Made by a program: the position numbers and the translations under genes. A DNA stretch of 64,000 bases from contig CAZDBT010000001.1 in assembly GCA_964503795.1 (NCBI GenBank), positions 4,518-68,517 on the forward strand, read 5' to 3'. Position 1 is the first letter of the stretch. The number at the start of each line of letters is the position of its first letter. Below the pieces are notes generated by a model that saw nothing but the letters and a program-made list of their open reading frames with translations, was not told the DNA's origin and made no database searches. Positions 44,359 to 58,666 of this stretch are shown here, piece after piece. This DNA comes from an uncultured Candidatus Saccharibacteria bacterium (GTDB taxonomy: Bacteria; Patescibacteriota; Minisyncoccia; UBA6257; WO2-44-18).

Positions 44359-45291
44359 CTAAAACAAGCCGTAAAACCAAATGAGCTTTTTCAGCTCCGC
44401 GAGCCGCCGATCTAAAACTTTCTTATCCTGGGCTTCCATCACCAAACGCAATAAATTTTCCGTGTTGGAGGGACGCAACGCAAACCACCATCCGCCAGCT
44501 GGCGGACCGAATTCCATTTTCAATCCATCGATCTTGGAAACCCGCTCGGCGACCGAACTGTATTTTTTTTCTATCATCGCCATCACCCCTTCCTTATCTT
44601 TCACCTCAAAATTCAATTCTCCCGACCGATAAAATACCGGCAAACCGTCCAGCCAACCGGAGAGCCTCTGACCGGCAGCCTTCATTTCCGCTACCGCATT
44701 CATCAGATAAATAGCCGCCAAAATTCCTGAATCAAAATAAGAAGCGCCTAGCGGAAAATAATAATGGCCGGAAAATTCACCGCCGAAGTCGGCTTTTTTT
44801 ACTTTCATCGTATTTTTAATGAAATAGTGGCCCACCCGAGATTCGATCAGCTTCTTCTTGGCCTTTTTAAAAAGATCGGCGGCCAGATATCCCGCTAGGA
44901 TGTTAGTCACTACCGGTCCGTGGAAATTCTTGCTCAATAGATACAAGATGGCATCGGCCGGAACTACCCTGCCCAGATCATCAACAAAAAACGCCCGATC
45001 GCCATCCGCGTCAAAGATCGCTCCGAAATCCGCCTTGTTTTTGACAACCGTTTTTTGCAAATCGCCGATCGCCCCTTCCGCCAGCGGATTGGGTCCGTGC
45101 GCCGGGAAGTTGCCGTCCGGTTTTTCATTGATCAATACATACTTAATACCGGATACTGAATACTTAATACTAAAAAGTTTTTCCAGAACTTTTCCCGTCG
45201 TTCCATTAGAACAATCAAAAACCACGCTCACCGTTTCGGCCAATTTAACTTTGCTTTTTAAAAAATCGACGTAGGACTTTAAATAATCCAT
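44359..45291 (-). CDS. Phosphomannomutase/phosphoglucomutase, C-terminal fragment (domains II-IV)
   Basis: 310 aa. GAIFDADGDRAFFVDD is the DxDxDR metal-binding loop of alpha-D-phosphohexomutases. It begins at the domain II start (DYLKSYVDFLKS, VVFDCSNGTTG). Confidence 0.8.
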   Translation of the reverse strand: MDYLKSYVDFLKSKVKLAETVSVVFDCSNGTTGKVLEKLFSIKYSVSGIKYVLINEKPDGNFPAHGPNPLAEGAIGDLQKTVVKNKADFGAIFDADGDRAFFVDDLGRVVPADAILYLLSKNFHGPVVTNILAGYLAADLFKKAKKKLIESRVGHYFIKNTMKVKKADFGGEFSGHYYFPLGASYFDSGILAAIYLMNAVAEMKAAGQRLSGWLDGLPVFYRSGELNFEVKDKEGVMAMIEKKYSSVAERVSKIDGLKMEFGPPAGGWWFALRPSNTENLLRLVMEAQDKKVLDRRLAELKKLIWFYGLF

Positions 45292-45360: not shown

Positions 45361-46125
45361 CTAGCGGGGGAACTTCCGGGAGGCGGCGAGACCGAGGTAG
45401 GAATCGGAGGAGTCGCCGTCGTACCAGTAGTCGACGTGGAGCTGGCCCCCGTAGAAGAGGACGTAGACGCGGCCGCCGTCCGAGGAAAGGGACGAGCTAC
45501 GCACTCCGTCGTTCTTCTCCCAGGTGTAGAGCTTGGTACCGGTCATCATATGATAGATGACCATCAGCTGGGCTAGGACAACGGCGGGCGGGTTCTCTTC
45601 CTGATTGGAGAGAAGCGCCATCTGCTGGCTGTAGGTCTTGTTGGTGGAATTGGGCACCCGATCCTTACGGATCAGGTGCCAGCGGACTTCCGGACGCTCC
45701 GAGTGAGCGAACGAATGGCCGTTGTACCAGGCGTCGGAGTAGGAGTAGAAAAGCTTGTTTGGAGCCTTCTCGCGGGTCTCCAAAATGGAGAGCGGGAAGC
45801 TGGGGAAAAGAATGTGTGTGTCTTTGCATTCCCGAAGGACGGATTCACCGAACGGGATAGTCGCCAGCTTCAGCAGGTCGCTTGAGGAGTATTTCACTGT
45901 GAGCTTGGACATCACGTCGGACGGAAAGATGAAATTCTGTCCCATGATCATCCGAGCCGCTTCCTGCGCGAGACCTTCTCCGACCGGTTGGCTCTGCTCG
46001 AGCTGTTTCACTAACCCGGCAACCTTCTGAAAAAGCGATGAGGTCGAGCTGATCAGCTTCTCTGCTTCGTCCCGGACTTCCACCAGAGCTAGCTTCACTG
46101 CTTCGCTCTTTTCCGCGTCGGTCAT
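45361..46125 (-). CDS. Unknown-family protein, paralog A of a tandem pair flanking hicBA
   Basis: 254 aa. It shares HILFPSFPLSILET, SERPEVRWHLIRKDRVPNSTNKTYSQQMALLS, EENPPAVVLAQLMVIY and LGLAASRKF blocks with the ORF at 46939..47697. GC-rich codon usage. AGGAGA SD. Confidence 0.6.
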   Translation of the reverse strand: MTDAEKSEAVKLALVEVRDEAEKLISSTSSLFQKVAGLVKQLEQSQPVGEGLAQEAARMIMGQNFIFPSDVMSKLTVKYSSSDLLKLATIPFGESVLRECKDTHILFPSFPLSILETREKAPNKLFYSYSDAWYNGHSFAHSERPEVRWHLIRKDRVPNSTNKTYSQQMALLSNQEENPPAVVLAQLMVIYHMMTGTKLYTWEKNDGVRSSSLSSDGGRVYVLFYGGQLHVDYWYDGDSSDSYLGLAASRKFPR

Positions 46126-46246: not shown

Positions 46247-46480
46247 TTAGAAATTCAACCACTCTCCTTTCGGAATACCTGACTGCGCGATCATACCTTT
46301 TAAAGTTCGGGGTTTAAAAGTTTTCGATGAATGAAATGGGACGCAAACCTGCATCAATTTTCCCTCATAGACTCCAGTAAAAAAATGATGGCTTCCCTCC
46401 GTATGATTCAGGCGAAAACCGTGTTCTTTTAAAAACTCTGCGACGTCATGAAACGTCCAATTAAAAACCTTTCTAGGCAT
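46247..46480 (-). CDS. hicA: HicA-family toxin (mRNA interferase)
   Basis: 77 aa. FLKEHGFRLNHTEGSHHFFTG...VCVPFHSSKTFKPRTLKGMIAQSGI matches HicA/YcfA (GSHH-F motif). AT-rich compared with its flanks. Confidence 0.7.
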   Translation of the reverse strand: MPRKVFNWTFHDVAEFLKEHGFRLNHTEGSHHFFTGVYEGKLMQVCVPFHSSKTFKPRTLKGMIAQSGIPKGEWLNF

Positions 46481-46814
46481 GCACCAAGCTACGGTTACTC
46501 ATGCTGCCAAAAGTAAACACATTTGACGGCACCTCTTCTTTGTTAGACTTTTTTACCTCCAACGAGTCCCACAGATCTTCATATTCGGGATCAGTTTTTT
46601 GATTCAAGATATGATTGATTCTGGCTTTGGCTTTTTGGGCTGATTTTAAATACCCGCGGGTGGCTTCAAGTAAGAGGAAAAGAGCCTCATCTGGGGTATC
46701 CGCCGATTCAACAATATTGAACTCTAAACCCACTCCGTACCAAACACCCTCTTCGCGAAAGATTATATACCTCAATGACCCTTTTTGAAGAGTATTTTGA
46801 TTTAATTTAGTCAT
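46473..46814 (-). CDS. hicB: HicB-family antitoxin (RNase-H-like fold, UPF0150)
   Basis: 113 aa. YIIFREEGVWYGVGLEFNIVESADTPDEA matches the HicB N-domain. It overlaps hicA by 8 nt. Confidence 0.6.
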   Translation of the reverse strand: MTKLNQNTLQKGSLRYIIFREEGVWYGVGLEFNIVESADTPDEALFLLLEATRGYLKSAQKAKARINHILNQKTDPEYEDLWDSLEVKKSNKEEVPSNVFTFGSMSNRSLVHA

Positions 46815-46938
46815 TGTCTGTTAGAACTATTTTAACAAAAAATCCTCTTCGACGCAACGTCGGAGAGGATTGAGGATCAAGGGGAACAAGGGGTCAAAAG
46901 CTTCATCGGGATCAATCCGCCAGCTGGCGGACCAAAGC

Positions 46939-47697
46939 TCACTTCTGGAACTTCCGGGAGGCGGCGAGACCGAGGTCGGAATTGTAGTAGTCGCCGTTCC
47001 CGTCGCCGACGTCGAGCCGGCCCTCGTAGAAGCCGACGCCGACGCGGTCGCCGTCCGAGGACTTGGAGCAGGAGCGCGCGTAGACCGACTCGAACAACTT
47101 CTTGCCGGTCATCAGGAAATAGATGACCATCATCTGCACCAGCACAACCGCCGGCGGATTCTCTTCCTTGTCGGAAAGCAGAGCCAGCTGCTGATCGTAG
47201 GTCTTATTGGTGGAATTGGGCAGGTGGTCCTTGCGGATCAGATGCCAACGGACTTCCGGACGCTCGCTCTTGGCGAACTTCTCGGTGTTGTACCAGTCCT
47301 GTTCGTAGAACAGGCCGGAAGCTTTCGCCTTCGTCTCCAAGATGGAGAGGGGGAAGGTCGGGAAAAGGATGTGGTTGTCCCGAAGCTCTTGCAGGATTTC
47401 GGGGCTCCAGGGGATCTTCTCCAGCGACTTCAGCTCCTTGTCGGAGTATTTCACTCCAAGTTTGGCCATCACCTCGCCGGGAAGGATGCACTGATCGCCG
47501 AGGATCAGCTTGGCGCCGGACTGGTCGGAGGAATGACCACGACCACCGGAACGGATGAACTCCACCACTCTCTGCGCCAGGGCGTTGCCCTTGCTTTCGA
47601 TCACCGCCTGGGCTTCTTTCTGGCCCAGTCCGGCCGCTTCCAACTTCACCAGAAGCTCATGCTCGCTGTGAACGGAAAGCTCACGATGATTGCTCAT
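46939..47697 (-). CDS. Unknown-family protein, paralog B
   Basis: 252 aa, paralogous to 45361..46125 (about 50% identity by eye). GAAAGGAAG SD. A 29-nt stretch, gaacttccgggaggcggcgagaccgaggt, is identical at the 3' ends of both genes. Confidence 0.6.
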   Translation of the reverse strand: MSNHRELSVHSEHELLVKLEAAGLGQKEAQAVIESKGNALAQRVVEFIRSGGRGHSSDQSGAKLILGDQCILPGEVMAKLGVKYSDKELKSLEKIPWSPEILQELRDNHILFPTFPLSILETKAKASGLFYEQDWYNTEKFAKSERPEVRWHLIRKDHLPNSTNKTYDQQLALLSDKEENPPAVVLVQMMVIYFLMTGKKLFESVYARSCSKSSDGDRVGVGFYEGRLDVGDGNGDYYNSDLGLAASRKFQK

Positions 47698-47780
47698 CGC
47701 ACACTTCCTTTCTTGAAAAGAACTGTTGCTCGAGGCCCGAGCAGGCAGTCAAGCGAACGCTTGATTGCCTAAATTATAAT

Positions 47781-48173
47781 CTATTCCGCAGCTTTTGTCA
47801 ACAAGTCGAGAATTTCGGTTCCACTAATAATTTCGGCGCCTTTTTTCACCACCTTCAGACCGTTGAACTCCTTTGGCGCGTGCGAAGCGGTAACCATTAC
47901 TCCGCCAACCGCCTTCAATTCATTGGCCAGAAAATAAAACATCGGGGTGGTGCAAAGACCCGCCTCTTCAATAATAAAACCGCGATCCTGAAAAACTTCG
48001 CGAATCGCCTCATATATGGAAGGCGAACTCAAGCGTGCGTCGTAGCCAATAATGATCTTGCCCTGCTGGAAACGGTCGGCTAAGACTTCCGCGATCTGCC
48101 TGCCCGCCGCCTCGTTGATCTCATCCGGGTAGCGGCCGCGAATGTCGTAAGCCTTGAAGATCGCCCGGTTCAT
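47781..48173 (-). CDS. Phosphomannomutase/phosphoglucomutase, N-terminal fragment (domain I)
   Basis: Start at MNRAIFKAYDIRG (ATG 48173, forming an ATGA overlap with the HAD gene stop). VMVTASHAPKEFNGLKV is the phosphoserine loop (TASHNP-type). It stops after about 130 aa at the domain I/II boundary. Confidence 0.8.
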   Translation of the reverse strand: MNRAIFKAYDIRGRYPDEINEAAGRQIAEVLADRFQQGKIIIGYDARLSSPSIYEAIREVFQDRGFIIEEAGLCTTPMFYFLANELKAVGGVMVTASHAPKEFNGLKVVKKGAEIISGTEILDLLTKAAE

Positions 48174-48745
48174 AGAAGATGCGGCAGCAGTTCGCTCCAA
48201 GAACGAACTTGATGATCGACAAAAGACAATTTTCCGAATTTATGAAAACGATCGAACAATAACCGGGTGTTAACGTCAGTCAACTTTTCCAAAACGCTCG
48301 GCTGGTCATCCACGTAAAGATCAATGCCTAAACGAACGGCATGCTCATTTTTTTCTTCCGGCTCGCGCACAAAAAAAGCGTTCCGCTCGTTGAAATAAAT
48401 AGGCCAGATCCCGTGTTTTTCCAGAAGCCGGATCGCCATGCCGGGATTGTGACGGCGGGAGATCAGAAAAAAGGGCCGCCCGGAAGCTTTCACCCGCGCC
48501 AGACCCTCTTTGGCTCCGGTAACAGTCCCGGCTTCTAAAGCCAGAACCGGATCATCGTAAAGTAGCGGCCGCATCTTCGCCAAAATTCTCTCCGGCACGA
48601 TTGTTTCAATAAAATCAGCCGGAGTATCTTCCTCTTTCAGGGCAAAACCGAATTTTTTAGCCAGCAGGATCTTGTTTGCGGTGTTATCAATGATAACTCC
48701 GTCCATATCAAAACCAATTATTTTTGAGGTGGCTTTATTTGTCAT
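48170..48745 (-). CDS. HAD-superfamily hydrolase
   Basis: 191 aa. IIGFDMDGVIID is HAD motif I (DxDGV). GIDLYVDDQ is a motif IV candidate. Confidence 0.65.
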   Translation of the reverse strand: MTNKATSKIIGFDMDGVIIDNTANKILLAKKFGFALKEEDTPADFIETIVPERILAKMRPLLYDDPVLALEAGTVTGAKEGLARVKASGRPFFLISRRHNPGMAIRLLEKHGIWPIYFNERNAFFVREPEEKNEHAVRLGIDLYVDDQPSVLEKLTDVNTRLLFDRFHKFGKLSFVDHQVRSWSELLPHLL

Positions 48746-56534: not shown

Positions 56535-56679
56535 ACAGGCCTCCGCTTTTTCGGTCTCAAGATTCTACCGAGAGCATACCGCTTTTTTAATATTCGTCAA
56601 CAAAAATCCCGGCTCCACGCCGAGACATACAAAACGATCTTAATCAGTCAATGACTTGACTATCTAGTCAAGCAGTTGT

Positions 56680-57051
56680 CTAAAGATTTTCGTAGTGGGA
56701 AATTTGCAGCGGATCCAGACAGATCGCCACCAGATCGATCCGGTATCCCCTTGTTGGGTCTATGATTGCCTCATTGGATCCGGCAAATAATGCGGCAACT
56801 CGTTTTAACTTTGTCAGTTTGGCGCTAGTTAAATTGTCTTCTGGATGTAAATCAGTGTTTGCCGGCAAACGTCGTACGCTTTTTACCTCCACGAAAACCA
56901 GAACTCCTTCATGATCTTTAGCGATAATATCCAACTCGCCCCAGGGCTTCCAATAATTTCTTTCAAGAATCTTGTATCCTTTCTTAATTAGAAAATCACA
57001 TGCGTGACCTTCTCCGATTGCTCCGGTGATAGATGTTTTACTTTTAAGCAT
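56680..57051 (-). CDS. yraN: YraN-family (UPF0102) endonuclease-like protein
   Basis: 123 aa. GAIGEGHACDFLIKKGYKILERNYWKPWGELDIIAKDHEGVLVFVEVKSVR matches the YraN consensus. Confidence 0.75.
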   Translation of the reverse strand: MLKSKTSITGAIGEGHACDFLIKKGYKILERNYWKPWGELDIIAKDHEGVLVFVEVKSVRRLPANTDLHPEDNLTSAKLTKLKRVAALFAGSNEAIIDPTRGYRIDLVAICLDPLQISHYENL

Positions 57052-57058
57052 AATCGTT

Positions 57059-57184
57059 AAGTGATGTTTAGCGTTTTACATTGTACTACGAATTTCCAGA
57101 CTACAAAAGGCCAGATTCTGTGATGGGCATTCTAACTTTGACTGGGCGTAGTTACGAAACGACGTAAAACGCTAAGCATCACTT
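57059..57184. repeat. 126-bp MITE-like element or large stem-loop with 21-bp terminal inverted repeats
   Basis: AAGTGATGTTTAGCGTTTTAC at 57059-57079 pairs with GTAAAACGCTAAGCATCACTT at 57164-57184 (20/21). It starts 8 nt upstream of the yraN ATG. Confidence 0.6.
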
Positions 57185-57396
57185 GTCGCCTTTGGCATAT
57201 CTAAATATGTTTCACACTAAACACTTTTTTTAATTCCCTCACAAAGTTGGTACGGTGTTTAACACTTAAGTGTTAAACAATTCCCCTAATAGCCCCTGTT
57301 AAACAAATTAGTATGTTTCACACTGATTGCCGCATTCTGTCAAGTAGTTGTTTTGCCGCATTATGCGGCAATCCGGCAAAGAAAAACCCCGCTAAA

Positions 57397-57912
57397 CTAA
57401 GCAGGGTCAATTAGACAGTGGAAGCCTCTGTCTAAGGCATCAAATATTGCTTCTCTCATAAGGGCGGCGCAATGCTCTCTGGCGCGAGGCAGGCCAGAGA
57501 GTCTCATCAGGTCTGCTTCTTTTAATGATAGGATCTCTTCGACTCTCTTATGTTCTACATATCCGGAAAACCAACTAGAGGCGGCGATCAGCCAGCTACA
57601 ACCTATTGAGACATGCTTCACGGCCTCAATGTAATAACAGGACCCAAACGCGAGGCAAAAGGAACAGTTAACGAATTCTACGTCAGAACTGCCATAGGCG
57701 GAGTTGGGAGCTTTTCCGGTGGCCGAACACTCCAAGCAGGGAAGCATCTCCCACTTGAAACTCAACGCCAAGAAATCGTTGTACAATTCCTTTTTGGCGA
57801 TCCCGGTCAGGATCCTCGCTTCTCTATCCGGAAAACTTCCCCAGTTACGAGGTTTCCGGTAATGCTCGAGAAGAAGATCATTGGCGTCCTGGGATTCATT
57901 CATGGCCAACAT
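57397..57912 (-). CDS. NifU/IscU-like Fe-S cluster scaffold domain protein (divergent, with insertions)
   Basis: 171 aa. LLEHYRKPRNWGSFPD matches the IscU N-terminus (DHYENPRNVGS). SIGCSWLIAASS matches YGCGSAIASSS, and LPRAREHCAALMREAIFDAL matches LPPVKIHCSILAEDAIKAAI. Confidence 0.55.
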   Translation of the reverse strand: MLAMNESQDANDLLLEHYRKPRNWGSFPDREARILTGIAKKELYNDFLALSFKWEMLPCLECSATGKAPNSAYGSSDVEFVNCSFCLAFGSCYYIEAVKHVSIGCSWLIAASSWFSGYVEHKRVEEILSLKEADLMRLSGLPRAREHCAALMREAIFDALDRGFHCLIDPA

Positions 57913-58219
57913 TTCTCAACTCGCTTCGGATCCTTTCCAAAAGCGCCGCGTAAATATTTTTTTCTATCCAAGCGGCATAAGTCGGGCATTGGGAATCCAG
58001 TGAAAGCGACCGCAAGGAATTCAGGATTCCGAGCGTGCCCTCCTGGAGTAGATCATCAGCCTCGATCCGAGTTTTATGTTCGGCCTGTAGATTGTCCGCT
58101 GTGTCCTTAACATAATTTTGGTAGAGACGGATCAACTCAACTTTCGCGTCACCGTCACCTTGAGCTGCCAAAGAATAAAGGGAGGGGATATCGCCCGGAG
58201 GAGTTTTCGTTTCGCTCAT
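57896..58219 (-). CDS. Sigma-70 region-2-like domain protein (no region 4 detected)
   Basis: Start at MSETKTPPGD (ATG 58219, AGGAAG SD). VELIRLYQNYVKDTADNL...EADDLLQEGTLGILNSL resembles sigma-70 regions 2.1-2.2. Only 107 aa. It overlaps the NifU-like gene by 17 nt. Confidence 0.35.
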   Translation of the reverse strand: MSETKTPPGDIPSLYSLAAQGDGDAKVELIRLYQNYVKDTADNLQAEHKTRIEADDLLQEGTLGILNSLRSLSLDSQCPTYAAWIEKNIYAALLERIRSELRNVGHE

Positions 58220-58449
58220 CACAGAACTTCCTAAATTAAAAAACTGACTACAGCATACTGCGGGAAATAGAAAAACGGAAGAGGTGATGTGCGCTAAGGG
58301 AATTTCGCTTCGCCGAACCACTATCGCCGCACCCCGACCCCCATCTTGGACACCTTCTGGTTTCCAAGTGCCTTCCAACACGGGGTACGGCTGGTTCGAT
58401 TCCTAGAACCTGTAATTTAAAATCACCCTTGTGGGTGATTTTAAATTAG

Positions 58450-58595: not shown

Positions 58596-58666
58596 GGGTG
58601 TGGATAACTCTGGGATAATTCTAATCGCGATTTGACATTCTGTAAACTCTGACGGCTGATTTAAGC

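Follow-up and report, generated by a model that had tools for sequence, protein, structure and literature searches.

The window analysed here, a stretch of 64,000 nucleotides from contig CAZDBT010000001.1 of an uncultured Candidatus Saccharibacteria bacterium, contains a gap of 345 bp (57052-57396) densely filled with inverted and direct repeats. It separates yraN (56680-57051, minus strand), encoding a PD-(D/E)XK nuclease of the UPF0102 family (Pfam PF02021, E = 5.6e-20), from its upstream neighbour, a NifU-like gene (NifU_N-like; 57397-57912, minus strand). The local genes, without exception on the minus strand, are in the order metK, tRNA-Lys, tRNA-Val, a small open reading frame (ORF) resembling sigma-70 region 2, the NifU-like gene, the gap, yraN, DUF5701, cofD and a PLD-like gene. 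On its upstream side, the regulatory gap is bounded by an intrinsic terminator of the NifU-like gene (57385-57408, minus strand), which a terminator scan resolved as a 9-bp stem followed by a T run and which has an equivalent 3' of the NifU-like gene in relatives. With a GC content of 0.43, the region from 56.5 to 57.5 kb is relatively AT-rich. The gap repeats are one phenomenon, each being made from half-sites of a 16-bp palindrome TGTTTnnCGnnAAACA which belongs to the family of the bacterial partition site parS (TGTTTCACGTGAAACA).

The repeats are all real and far above chance. A preliminary description, made from the sequence alone, had placed 21-bp terminal inverted repeats (TIRs) at the ends of a 126-bp element; this 21-nt core is indeed 20/21 complementary, and the arms extend over 26 nt at 88% complementarity (57059-57084 and 57159-57184, the whole element covering 57059-57184). 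In the 64 kb the arm 21-mer is found only in these two arms, with 0 occurrences expected. Also exact as claimed are the palindrome TTGCCGCATTATGCGGCAA at 57353-57371 and the direct repeat TATGTTTCACACT at 57206 and 57312, the latter by itself being weak evidence, as 15 of 100 shuffles give at least two matches at up to two mismatches. The central palindrome is perfect, yet it measures 24 bp (57256-57279) and not 22 bp, and the supposed T8 run is a T7 at 57225-57231. That the gap is unusually structured is borne out by seven half-sites TGTTTNNC/GNNAAACA within 345 bp versus 0.17 predicted from the window average, and no other window stretch of that length exceeds three. For the whole gap, folding gives z values of -4.3 to -4.4 on either strand, as expected of dyad symmetry at the DNA level, and the 126-bp element as single-stranded DNA reaches -25.3 kcal/mol (z = -5.9).

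The nature of these repeats becomes apparent from the corresponding loci of relatives (L-numbers), which were fetched via YraN homologues with source names including "Patescibacteria group bacterium" and "Parcubacteria group bacterium"; the window itself belongs to a Patescibacteria/Parcubacteria metagenome-assembled genome. In the fetched loci, 16-bp palindromes of the TGTTTnnCGnnAAACA form fill the region preceding yraN. A site scan of 80 species-representative loci, counting positions -700 to +500 relative to the yraN start as near, returned 85 strict sites in 92.6 kb near yraN versus 6 in 359 kb elsewhere, a 55-fold enrichment. A central CG is present in 77 of the 85 sites, 42 are perfect palindromes and 14 represent canonical parS, an exact 16-mer that is expected by chance once per 4.3 Gb. 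In L014, a perfect canonical site lies 16 nt before yraN. The array of L016 comprises ten sites with at most one mismatch between -421 and +250, the nine upstream ones being 48-50 bp apart and five of those identical to TGTTTCACGTGAAACA; in 20 kb of this genome, every strict site is located at yraN. About ten sites were found in L023, and arrays are also present in L017, L014, L013 and L011. Four sites of the TGTTTAGCGCTAAACA type (AGCGCT) each occur in L046, L050, L052 and L069, with a spacing of about 83 bp in L046, and L058 shows four GCCGGC-type sites on a 42-bp grid. The arrays do not end at the start codon, as TGTTTGCCGGCAAACA-type sites continue inside the yraN ORF of relatives (+160 to +455), coinciding with the protein motifs LPAN and LFAG. 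The Ala codon of the FAG motif is GCC in 12 of 13 genes versus a background of 31%, hence codon choice is biased towards the palindrome. yraN is the only gene consistently linked to the arrays: on clustering of the neighbours, YraN was recovered from 80 loci, and every other family was limited to 22 loci or fewer.

In the best-ordered arrays (L016 2580-3000, corresponding to L212 9589-9992, and L023 2330-2990) the period is strictly 48-49 bp, with unique spacers of 32-33 nt. A motif AAGCT(A/C/T) stands in mid-spacer at a fixed distance in the L016/L212 and L023 arrays and was also seen in L013 and L014. In L023, similar spacers recur about 300 bp apart, resembling segmental duplication within the array.

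The central hexamer of the sites varies symmetrically from lineage to lineage (CACGTG, AGCGCT, GCCGGC, GTCGAC, AACGTT and ACCGGT), positions 6-7 and 10-11 covary, and hybrid sites exist. Both signs of dyad symmetry that would be expected for recognition by a dimer, covariation of the half-sites and the occurrence of hybrids, were consequently observed. As positions 7 and 10 enclose only 2 nt, an RNA hairpin is not possible at these sites, and the pattern fits a dimeric protein on duplex DNA.

Arrays of this kind share regular short repeats, uniform spacers, an adjoining small nuclease gene and an occurrence in Candidate Phyla Radiation bacteria with CRISPR and TIGR arrays (TIGR-Tas, PMC12045711), and the second short conserved motif in mid-spacer adds to this likeness. 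Such an assignment was rejected on several grounds. Pfam analysis of the neighbouring genes gave neither a Cas nor a Nop-domain (Tas) gene; the repeats vary within one array, with positions 7 and 10 covarying as a DNA dyad; and the spacers are alike as diverged duplications (L023), while the sites continue in the yraN ORF. Likewise dismissed was a box C/D reading of the window, since the arm sequence GTGATG, which resembles box C, is not conserved (CGATG in L004) and a Nop-domain protein is lacking.

When the 64 kb of the window were scanned with a matrix, the three top matches all fell at the yraN locus (57208, 56856 and 57065). The best site (20.1 bits, rank 1 of 64 kb) is the 16-mer TGTTTCACACTAAACA at 57208-57223, which agrees with canonical parS at 13/16 positions and is one base (G9 to A) away from TGTTTCACGCTAAACA, present twice in L017; together with direct-repeat copy 1, it occupies 57206-57223; the direct repeat TATGTTTCACACT itself corresponds to the canonical half-site TGTTTCAC plus flank. 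Rank 2 (16.1 bits) is taken by TGTTTGCCGGCAAACG inside the yraN ORF (56856-56871), a GCCGGC variant with one outer mismatch which encodes the LPAN motif. Rank 3 (8.6 bits) is the variant site TGTTTAGCGTTTTACA (57065-57080) in the proximal inverted-repeat arm (57059-57084), which reads TGTAAAACGCTAAACA in yraN orientation and lies as a 16-mer 14-29 nt upstream of the yraN ATG. Sites at about 14-33 nt before the yraN start are also found in L011, L013, L014, L016, L017, L023 and L069. The distal arm (57159-57184) contains the variant site CGTAAAACGCTAAGCA (57163-57178), the two arms thus being inverted copies of one asymmetric variant site, the half-site variant of which, TGTAAAAC, recurs three times in phase in the L023 array as TGTAAAACGTGAAACA. 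The 24-bp perfect palindrome TGTTTAAC-ACTTAAGT-GTTAAACA (57256-57279) combines two parS-type half-sites with 8 extra central bp. At the apparently equivalent place, L014 holds the unexpanded 16-mer TGTTTAACGTTAAACA followed by CTGTAC, and counterparts are TGTTTAACAGTTAAGTGTTAAACA in L011 and, analogously, ATGTTTCACACTAGTGTGAAACAT upstream of the L016 array. Finally, a lone half-site TGTTAAACAA at 57297-57306 repeats 57271-57280. Counted from the coordinates, site starts in the window are about 29, 128, 172, 228 and 278 nt upstream of the ATG, a spacing roughly following the phasing of L016 (-33, -81, -129, -179, -227 and -275). From these agreements in sequence and position, we are highly confident that the window repeats are homologous to the yraN arrays of relatives.

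Parts of the gap are conserved beyond the palindromes. An array-edge leader (57312-57343, minus strand) consists, in yraN orientation, of TTGACA (57338-57343), N13 and CAGTGTGAAACAT (57312-57324), the last being direct-repeat copy 2 and containing the half-parS GTTTCAC. In an alignment of seven loci, the leader is nearly invariant as TTGAC(A/G)-N13-(C/G)(A/G)GTGTGAAACAT-N5-TTTGTTTAACA, down to 53% YraN identity. A promoter scan of the gap on the yraN strand gave no sigma-70 match under the scan criteria; TTGACA-N17-TGAAAC might be read as a putative promoter-like element, which is solely our reading. A conserved non-repeat block, CACCGTACCAACTTTGTGAGGGAAT in yraN orientation (57229-57255, minus strand), is shared with L004 and is part of a stretch of about 170 nt which aligns at 77-79% identity to L007, L010 and L011, the YraN proteins of which are 67-74% identical; L012, L005 and L009 match a shorter portion of the stretch, and shorter portions also align to genomes with YraN identities down to 53%. 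As the gap is more alike than YraN in these relatives, it must be under constraint. A second repeat family, four TTGCCGNA/TNCGGCAA octamers at 57325-57380, holds the 19-bp palindrome 57353-57371 and an inverted repeat (57325-57335/57363-57373). These octamers are found at the same gap edge and inside or after yraN in L004, L005, L007, L009, L011, L012, L013, L014 and L016, often as 8-bp tandems, with a further occurrence in the window at 56779-56798 and three tandem copies in the ORF of L016 (+160 to +183).

For the 126-bp element, the preliminary description had considered an insertion like a miniature inverted-repeat transposable element (MITE), supplying a promoter for yraN. Short size and TIRs are indeed features that the element has in common with MITEs and foldback elements. 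However, its two arms are the only copies in the 64 kb, searches of 596 Gb of genomes and of the metagenome collection gave no exact match to the arm sequence (the source genome being apparently absent from both), and a target-site duplication is missing, as the flanks ATCGTT and GTCGCC show no direct repeat. Moreover, an orthologous inverted repeat with about 75% identity sits at the same place in L004. Between the window and L004, three positions have changed in both arms together (AAGTGATG/CATCACTT against AAACGATG/CATCGTTT, and TAGCG/CGCTA against TAGTG/CACTA), hence the arms are kept alike, by selection or conversion. Judged by this comparison, the 126-bp element is not a recent insertion. 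Unlike a MITE, it is inherited vertically at one locus and its arms belong to the local binding-site family, so that a mobile element inserted upstream of yraN is hardly credible.

The same paired changes and the strong folding, with z values for the element of -5.9 in the window and even -8.1 in L004, could be taken as signs of a long RNA hairpin, transcribed as a 5' untranslated regulator of yraN or as a small RNA. A structured non-coding RNA (ncRNA) had been proposed as well, but found no support in Rfam: a scan of the window with Rfam 15 at gathering thresholds gave only three tRNAs, and in a permissive scan of 56950-57500 all matches stayed far below the gathering score, the best being a plant miRNA model (E = 0.19). 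In addition, both strands fold equally well, pointing to symmetry of the DNA, and in the LAGLIDADG-positive relatives treated below the arms are only short, at about 17 nt. The hexamer ATTGTA at 57080-57085, read as minus-strand TACAAT, could be a candidate -10 box; being inside the element, it would yield an mRNA with only one arm. With the arms also being members of the protein-site family, we regard transcription as a long hairpin as very unlikely.

The canonical consensus TGTTNCACGTGAAACA is the site of ParB/Spo0J, and ParB also binds GTTTCAC half-sites and can repress genes adjacent to intergenic parS (PMC7022226). Exact matches to this consensus are the 14 canonical sites of the relatives, while the window has none and offers instead the 13/16 site, the variant with one outer mismatch and two canonical GTTTCAC half-sites. 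As an unbiased positive control, metagenomes were searched for pairs of canonical parS with a distance of 20-50 bp; in the 120 loci collected, ParA adjoins in 74 and ParB in 61 cases, and a YraN homologue was not found in any. One control locus without parAB, L117, bears 15 perfect canonical sites TGTTTCACGTGAAACA (1044-2027) between cca and dnaA-dnaN, and its DnaA homologues are named Candidatus Moranbacteria. Eight perfect canonical sites TGTTTCACGTGAAACA occupy the same cca-dnaA gap in a second Moranbacteria contig (L213, 8815-9663). Taken together with those at yraN, these arrays indicate that dense canonical parS arrays are recurrent in Parcubacteria-group bacteria. A similar array of 8-9 sites was noticed beside a cca homologue in L211 (24% GC).

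On this basis, we consider it rather probable that the gap is an eroded local version of a parS-type palindrome array which flanks and enters yraN in Parcubacteria/Paceibacteria, and which would function in cis as double-stranded DNA for protein binding. A dimeric protein of the ParB family would bind the palindromes as well as the half-sites; for ParB as the binder, our confidence is moderate. At the well-formed arrays of relatives, the ParB-type protein might nucleate a partition or condensation complex, making them chromosomal centromeres comparable to sopC, and occupancy of the site about 15-30 nt before the yraN start could also gate yraN transcription. In the sub-lineage of the window, the array would have been remodelled, sister genomes having a LAGLIDADG gene inserted and the window and L004 being without it. 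The remnant in the window would then comprise one good site, one in-gene site, several half-sites and expanded palindromes, with two inverted asymmetric variant sites, kept alike, making up the 126-bp TIR element.

Several observations weigh against this interpretation. At least two strict sites are present in only 17 of the 80 loci, and the tight linkage to yraN in every lineage could mean a yraN-specific regulator. The window is devoid of a full canonical parS, its best site reaching 13/16, and with asymmetric variant arms the window copy may no longer bind protein. Elsewhere in bacteria, tandem parS is normally found beside parAB, as in the control loci. Tblastn with Spo0J and Soj probes detected neither ParB nor ParA in the 64-kb window or in 89 yraN loci (about ±3 kb each); neither was found within ±10 kb in L212 and L213 or among the Pfam matches of 36 window ORFs. 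These very probes had detected the ParA and ParB of the control loci.

In an alternative explanation, the sites would form an operator array for a dimeric transcription factor outside the ParB family (for example, LacI-like, TrpR-like or a competence regulator) that controls yraN and, where there is one, the divergent LAGLIDADG gene, the likeness to parS being convergent. Operators of the LacI family typically are palindromes with a central CG, which would fit this view, as would the position of the proximal site in many lineages, 14-33 nt upstream of the yraN start, the linkage of the arrays to yraN and no other gene, and the lack of a parB nearby. Furthermore, in L212, the genome with the best array, yraN is directly followed downstream by a gene of the Trp_repressor family (PF01371; 10595-11098). 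An array of nine to ten phased sites, together with those in the ORF, however, far exceeds the requirements of a promoter, and 14 exact copies of canonical parS are difficult to reconcile with the chance expectation for such a 16-mer. Moreover, in Moranbacteria the same arrays accompany dnaA, with no yraN beside them, and no candidate regulator is conserved beside the arrays. We therefore regard a non-ParB operator array as unlikely.

In several close relatives (L005, L007/L010, L009 and L012), the gap harbours an ORF of 147-169 aa encoding a LAGLIDADG_1 protein, divergent from yraN (L005 3478-3921, L007 3457-3921, L009 1285-1728 and L012 2431-2940). Altogether, it was found in 20 of 83 loci, with single-domain products of 142-174 aa (except for a 75-aa fragment in L047) that are 45-79% identical. 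In 19 of the 20 cases, its start is 12-180 nt upstream of the tblastn-derived yraN start, mostly within about 130 nt, or overlaps it, L045 being the exception with about 900 nt. L018, L031, L033 and L045 have V, K, Q or T in place of the catalytic acidic residue. The LAGLIDADG gene and intact arrays are mutually exclusive: at least two strict sites occur in none of 18 LAGLIDADG-positive loci versus 15 of 56 negative ones (Fisher p = 0.015, a value ignoring relatedness). This exclusion might point to competition between gene and array, either with a homing endonuclease that would target the presumed centromere DNA or with a replacement of the function of the array. In the window and L004 the gene is absent, and the sites are eroded as in the LAGLIDADG-positive sisters. 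In the latter, two short inverted copies of TGTTTAnCGTTTTAC flank the divergent promoter region; in the window and L004, the arms of this TGTTTAnCGTTTTAC pair are longer and near-perfect.

Alternatively, the gap might be mainly the scar of a homing endonuclease which invaded it and subsequently disappeared from the lineage of the window and L004, the repeats being non-functional leftovers of this cycle or of its target. The presence of the LAGLIDADG_1 ORF at exactly this place, its exclusion of intact arrays and the finding that the closest relatives of the window other than L004 are LAGLIDADG-positive all accord with such a history. On the other hand, tblastn gave no credible match to an endonuclease remnant in the gap of the window or L004 (best E = 0.04 over 20 aa), and both the identity of the approximately 170 nt of the gap, exceeding that of YraN, and the concerted changes of the arms at three positions argue for ongoing constraint. 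A mere scar thus appears quite improbable, and this explanation complements the eroded parS-type array more than it replaces it. Going further, we tentatively propose that the centromere of the Parcubacteria group could be a plasmid-like phased array of up to 10-15 parS in 0.5-1 kb with the mid-spacer motif AAGCTN, placed at yraN in many Paceibacteria, with sites in the coding sequence, and between cca and dnaA in Moranbacteria. A long-resident LAGLIDADG gene would compete with it, being found only where the array is eroded, and the window would represent a post-invasion state. As a bolder variant, the arrays might serve YraN/ComM-dependent recombination instead of ParB.

The preliminary description had also suggested an origin- or partition-like site. 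Of its proposals, the partition-like site comes closest, in view of the half-sites and variants of parS-type palindromes. A replication origin (oriC) might be seen in the repeat-dense and relatively AT-rich gap, all the more as the Moranbacteria arrays abut dnaA. However, the 9-mers that had been likened to DnaA boxes do not qualify, as 57052-57396 contains no match to TTATCCACA with up to one mismatch, and the central bases of the sites vary, CACA not being their conserved part. Neither dnaA nor dnaN was found in the window or at any yraN locus. The proposed skew analysis revealed no sign change or inflection of the GC skew at 57 kb; the skew follows the gene strand and is hence uninformative for an origin. 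Overall, we consider an oriC in the gap to be highly improbable. A perfect DnaA box TTATCCACA exists in the window at 58599-58607, 4 nt from tRNA-Lys. In the whole window, 20 9-mers are at most one mismatch away from a DnaA box, versus 10.6 expected and with no shuffle reaching 20; they are dispersed and unclustered.

Compared with known chromosomal parS, the 16-bp palindrome is the same, with exact copies in relatives and, in the window, the half-site TGTTTCAC twice plus the 13/16 site. Chromosomal parS may also fall inside genes, as in the yraN arrays. In contrast, the sites described here are arrayed in phase (48-49, about 42 or about 83 bp), with up to 10-15 of them lying in 0.5-1 kb, and are positioned at yraN, or at dnaA in Moranbacteria, and not beside parAB. 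In addition, the two bases that flank the central CG on either side have drifted from lineage to lineage, the window copy is degenerate and ParB is a presumed partner. The centromere sopC of the F plasmid consists of 12 tandem 43-bp repeats, each with a 16-bp palindrome for SopB, a protein of the ParB family. KorB of the IncP plasmid RK2 is a ParB-family regulator as well, which by binding its operators OB (TTTAGCSGCTAAA) serves both partition and promoter control. The arrays of L016 and L023 match the architecture of sopC (sopC is discussed in PMC3597684) in their regular tandem 16-bp palindromes and fixed-length spacers. Unlike sopC, they are chromosomal, repeat the chromosomal parS sequence and extend into a coding gene, and the spacers are diverged except for the mid-spacer AAGCTN motif. 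With OB, the TGTTTAGCGCTAAACA sites (L046, L050, L052 and L069) and the arm half-site TTTAGCG of the window have the TTTAGC/GCTAAA half-site in common, whereas OB differs from the yraN sites by an extra central base and by being dispersed over the plasmid. A KorB-like gene was not identified here.

Other observations concern the surroundings of the gap. The identical YraN protein is encoded on Logan assemblies of SRR8931230, SRR8931231 and SRR8931233. Two same-strain Logan contigs from independent assemblies, L002 and L003, stop at or near gap palindromes (window 57370 and 57250), which probably reflects assembly and not biology; instead of palindromes breaking the assemblies, a drop of coverage at the gap might be responsible. 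The small ORF with a weak Sigma70_r2 match (window 57896-58381), overlapping and upstream of the NifU-like gene, occurs in 8 loci with a length of 106-161 aa (for example, L004 2873-3214, L005 2255-2611 and L011 1854-2174), and a similar ORF sits downstream of yraN in L017. RecA was found by Pfam near yraN in the window and also in L004, L007 and L009. In L212, the distance from yraN is about 3 kb to ComM on the upstream side and about 2 kb to RecG on the downstream side, and in L046 the ORFs adjoining yraN are presumably RuvA, YebC and RuvC, which they resemble as read from their N-termini. It thus looks as if yraN resides among recombination genes in other lineages. A palindrome outside the parS-like family, CTTGACTA-TC-TAGTCAAG, is located at 56655-56672 between the yraN stop and a terminator (56606-56626). 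Elsewhere in the window, a phosphoglucomutase/phosphomannomutase gene is apparently split into domain I (47781-48200) and, about 2.5 kb downstream, domains II-IV (44359-45291), both on the minus strand. As the intervening ORFs (45361-46125, 46473-46814 and 46870-47772) have no Pfam match, this may represent an insertion into the gene.

Searches of the accessible literature for parS or ParB in Patescibacteria/Parcubacteria, or for yraN in connection with parS, gave nothing relevant, and chromosomal parS-like arrays of Patescibacteria look like they have not been described before. To our knowledge, there is no experimental insight into how the ultra-small Patescibacteria, most of them uncultured, segregate their chromosomes. 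If the proposed function holds true, the centromere array, compact and easy to recognise, would provide a cis-acting origin/centromere landmark in fragmented metagenome-assembled genomes. It would likewise be a direct biochemical handle on the identity of the binding protein and on a possible loading of SMC by it, and a natural series of parS variants for studying the drift of specificity in the ParB family. The exclusion between array and LAGLIDADG gene would then be an unusual example of interaction between centromere DNA and an endonuclease, whether selfish or domesticated. For annotation, neither MITE nor ncRNA is an appropriate label for such dense inverted repeats. YraN was recently found to be ComM's nuclease partner in natural transformation (bioRxiv 10.1101/2024.02.06.579203), and the link of the arrays to yraN raises the question of whether segregation and recombination are coupled in reduced genomes.

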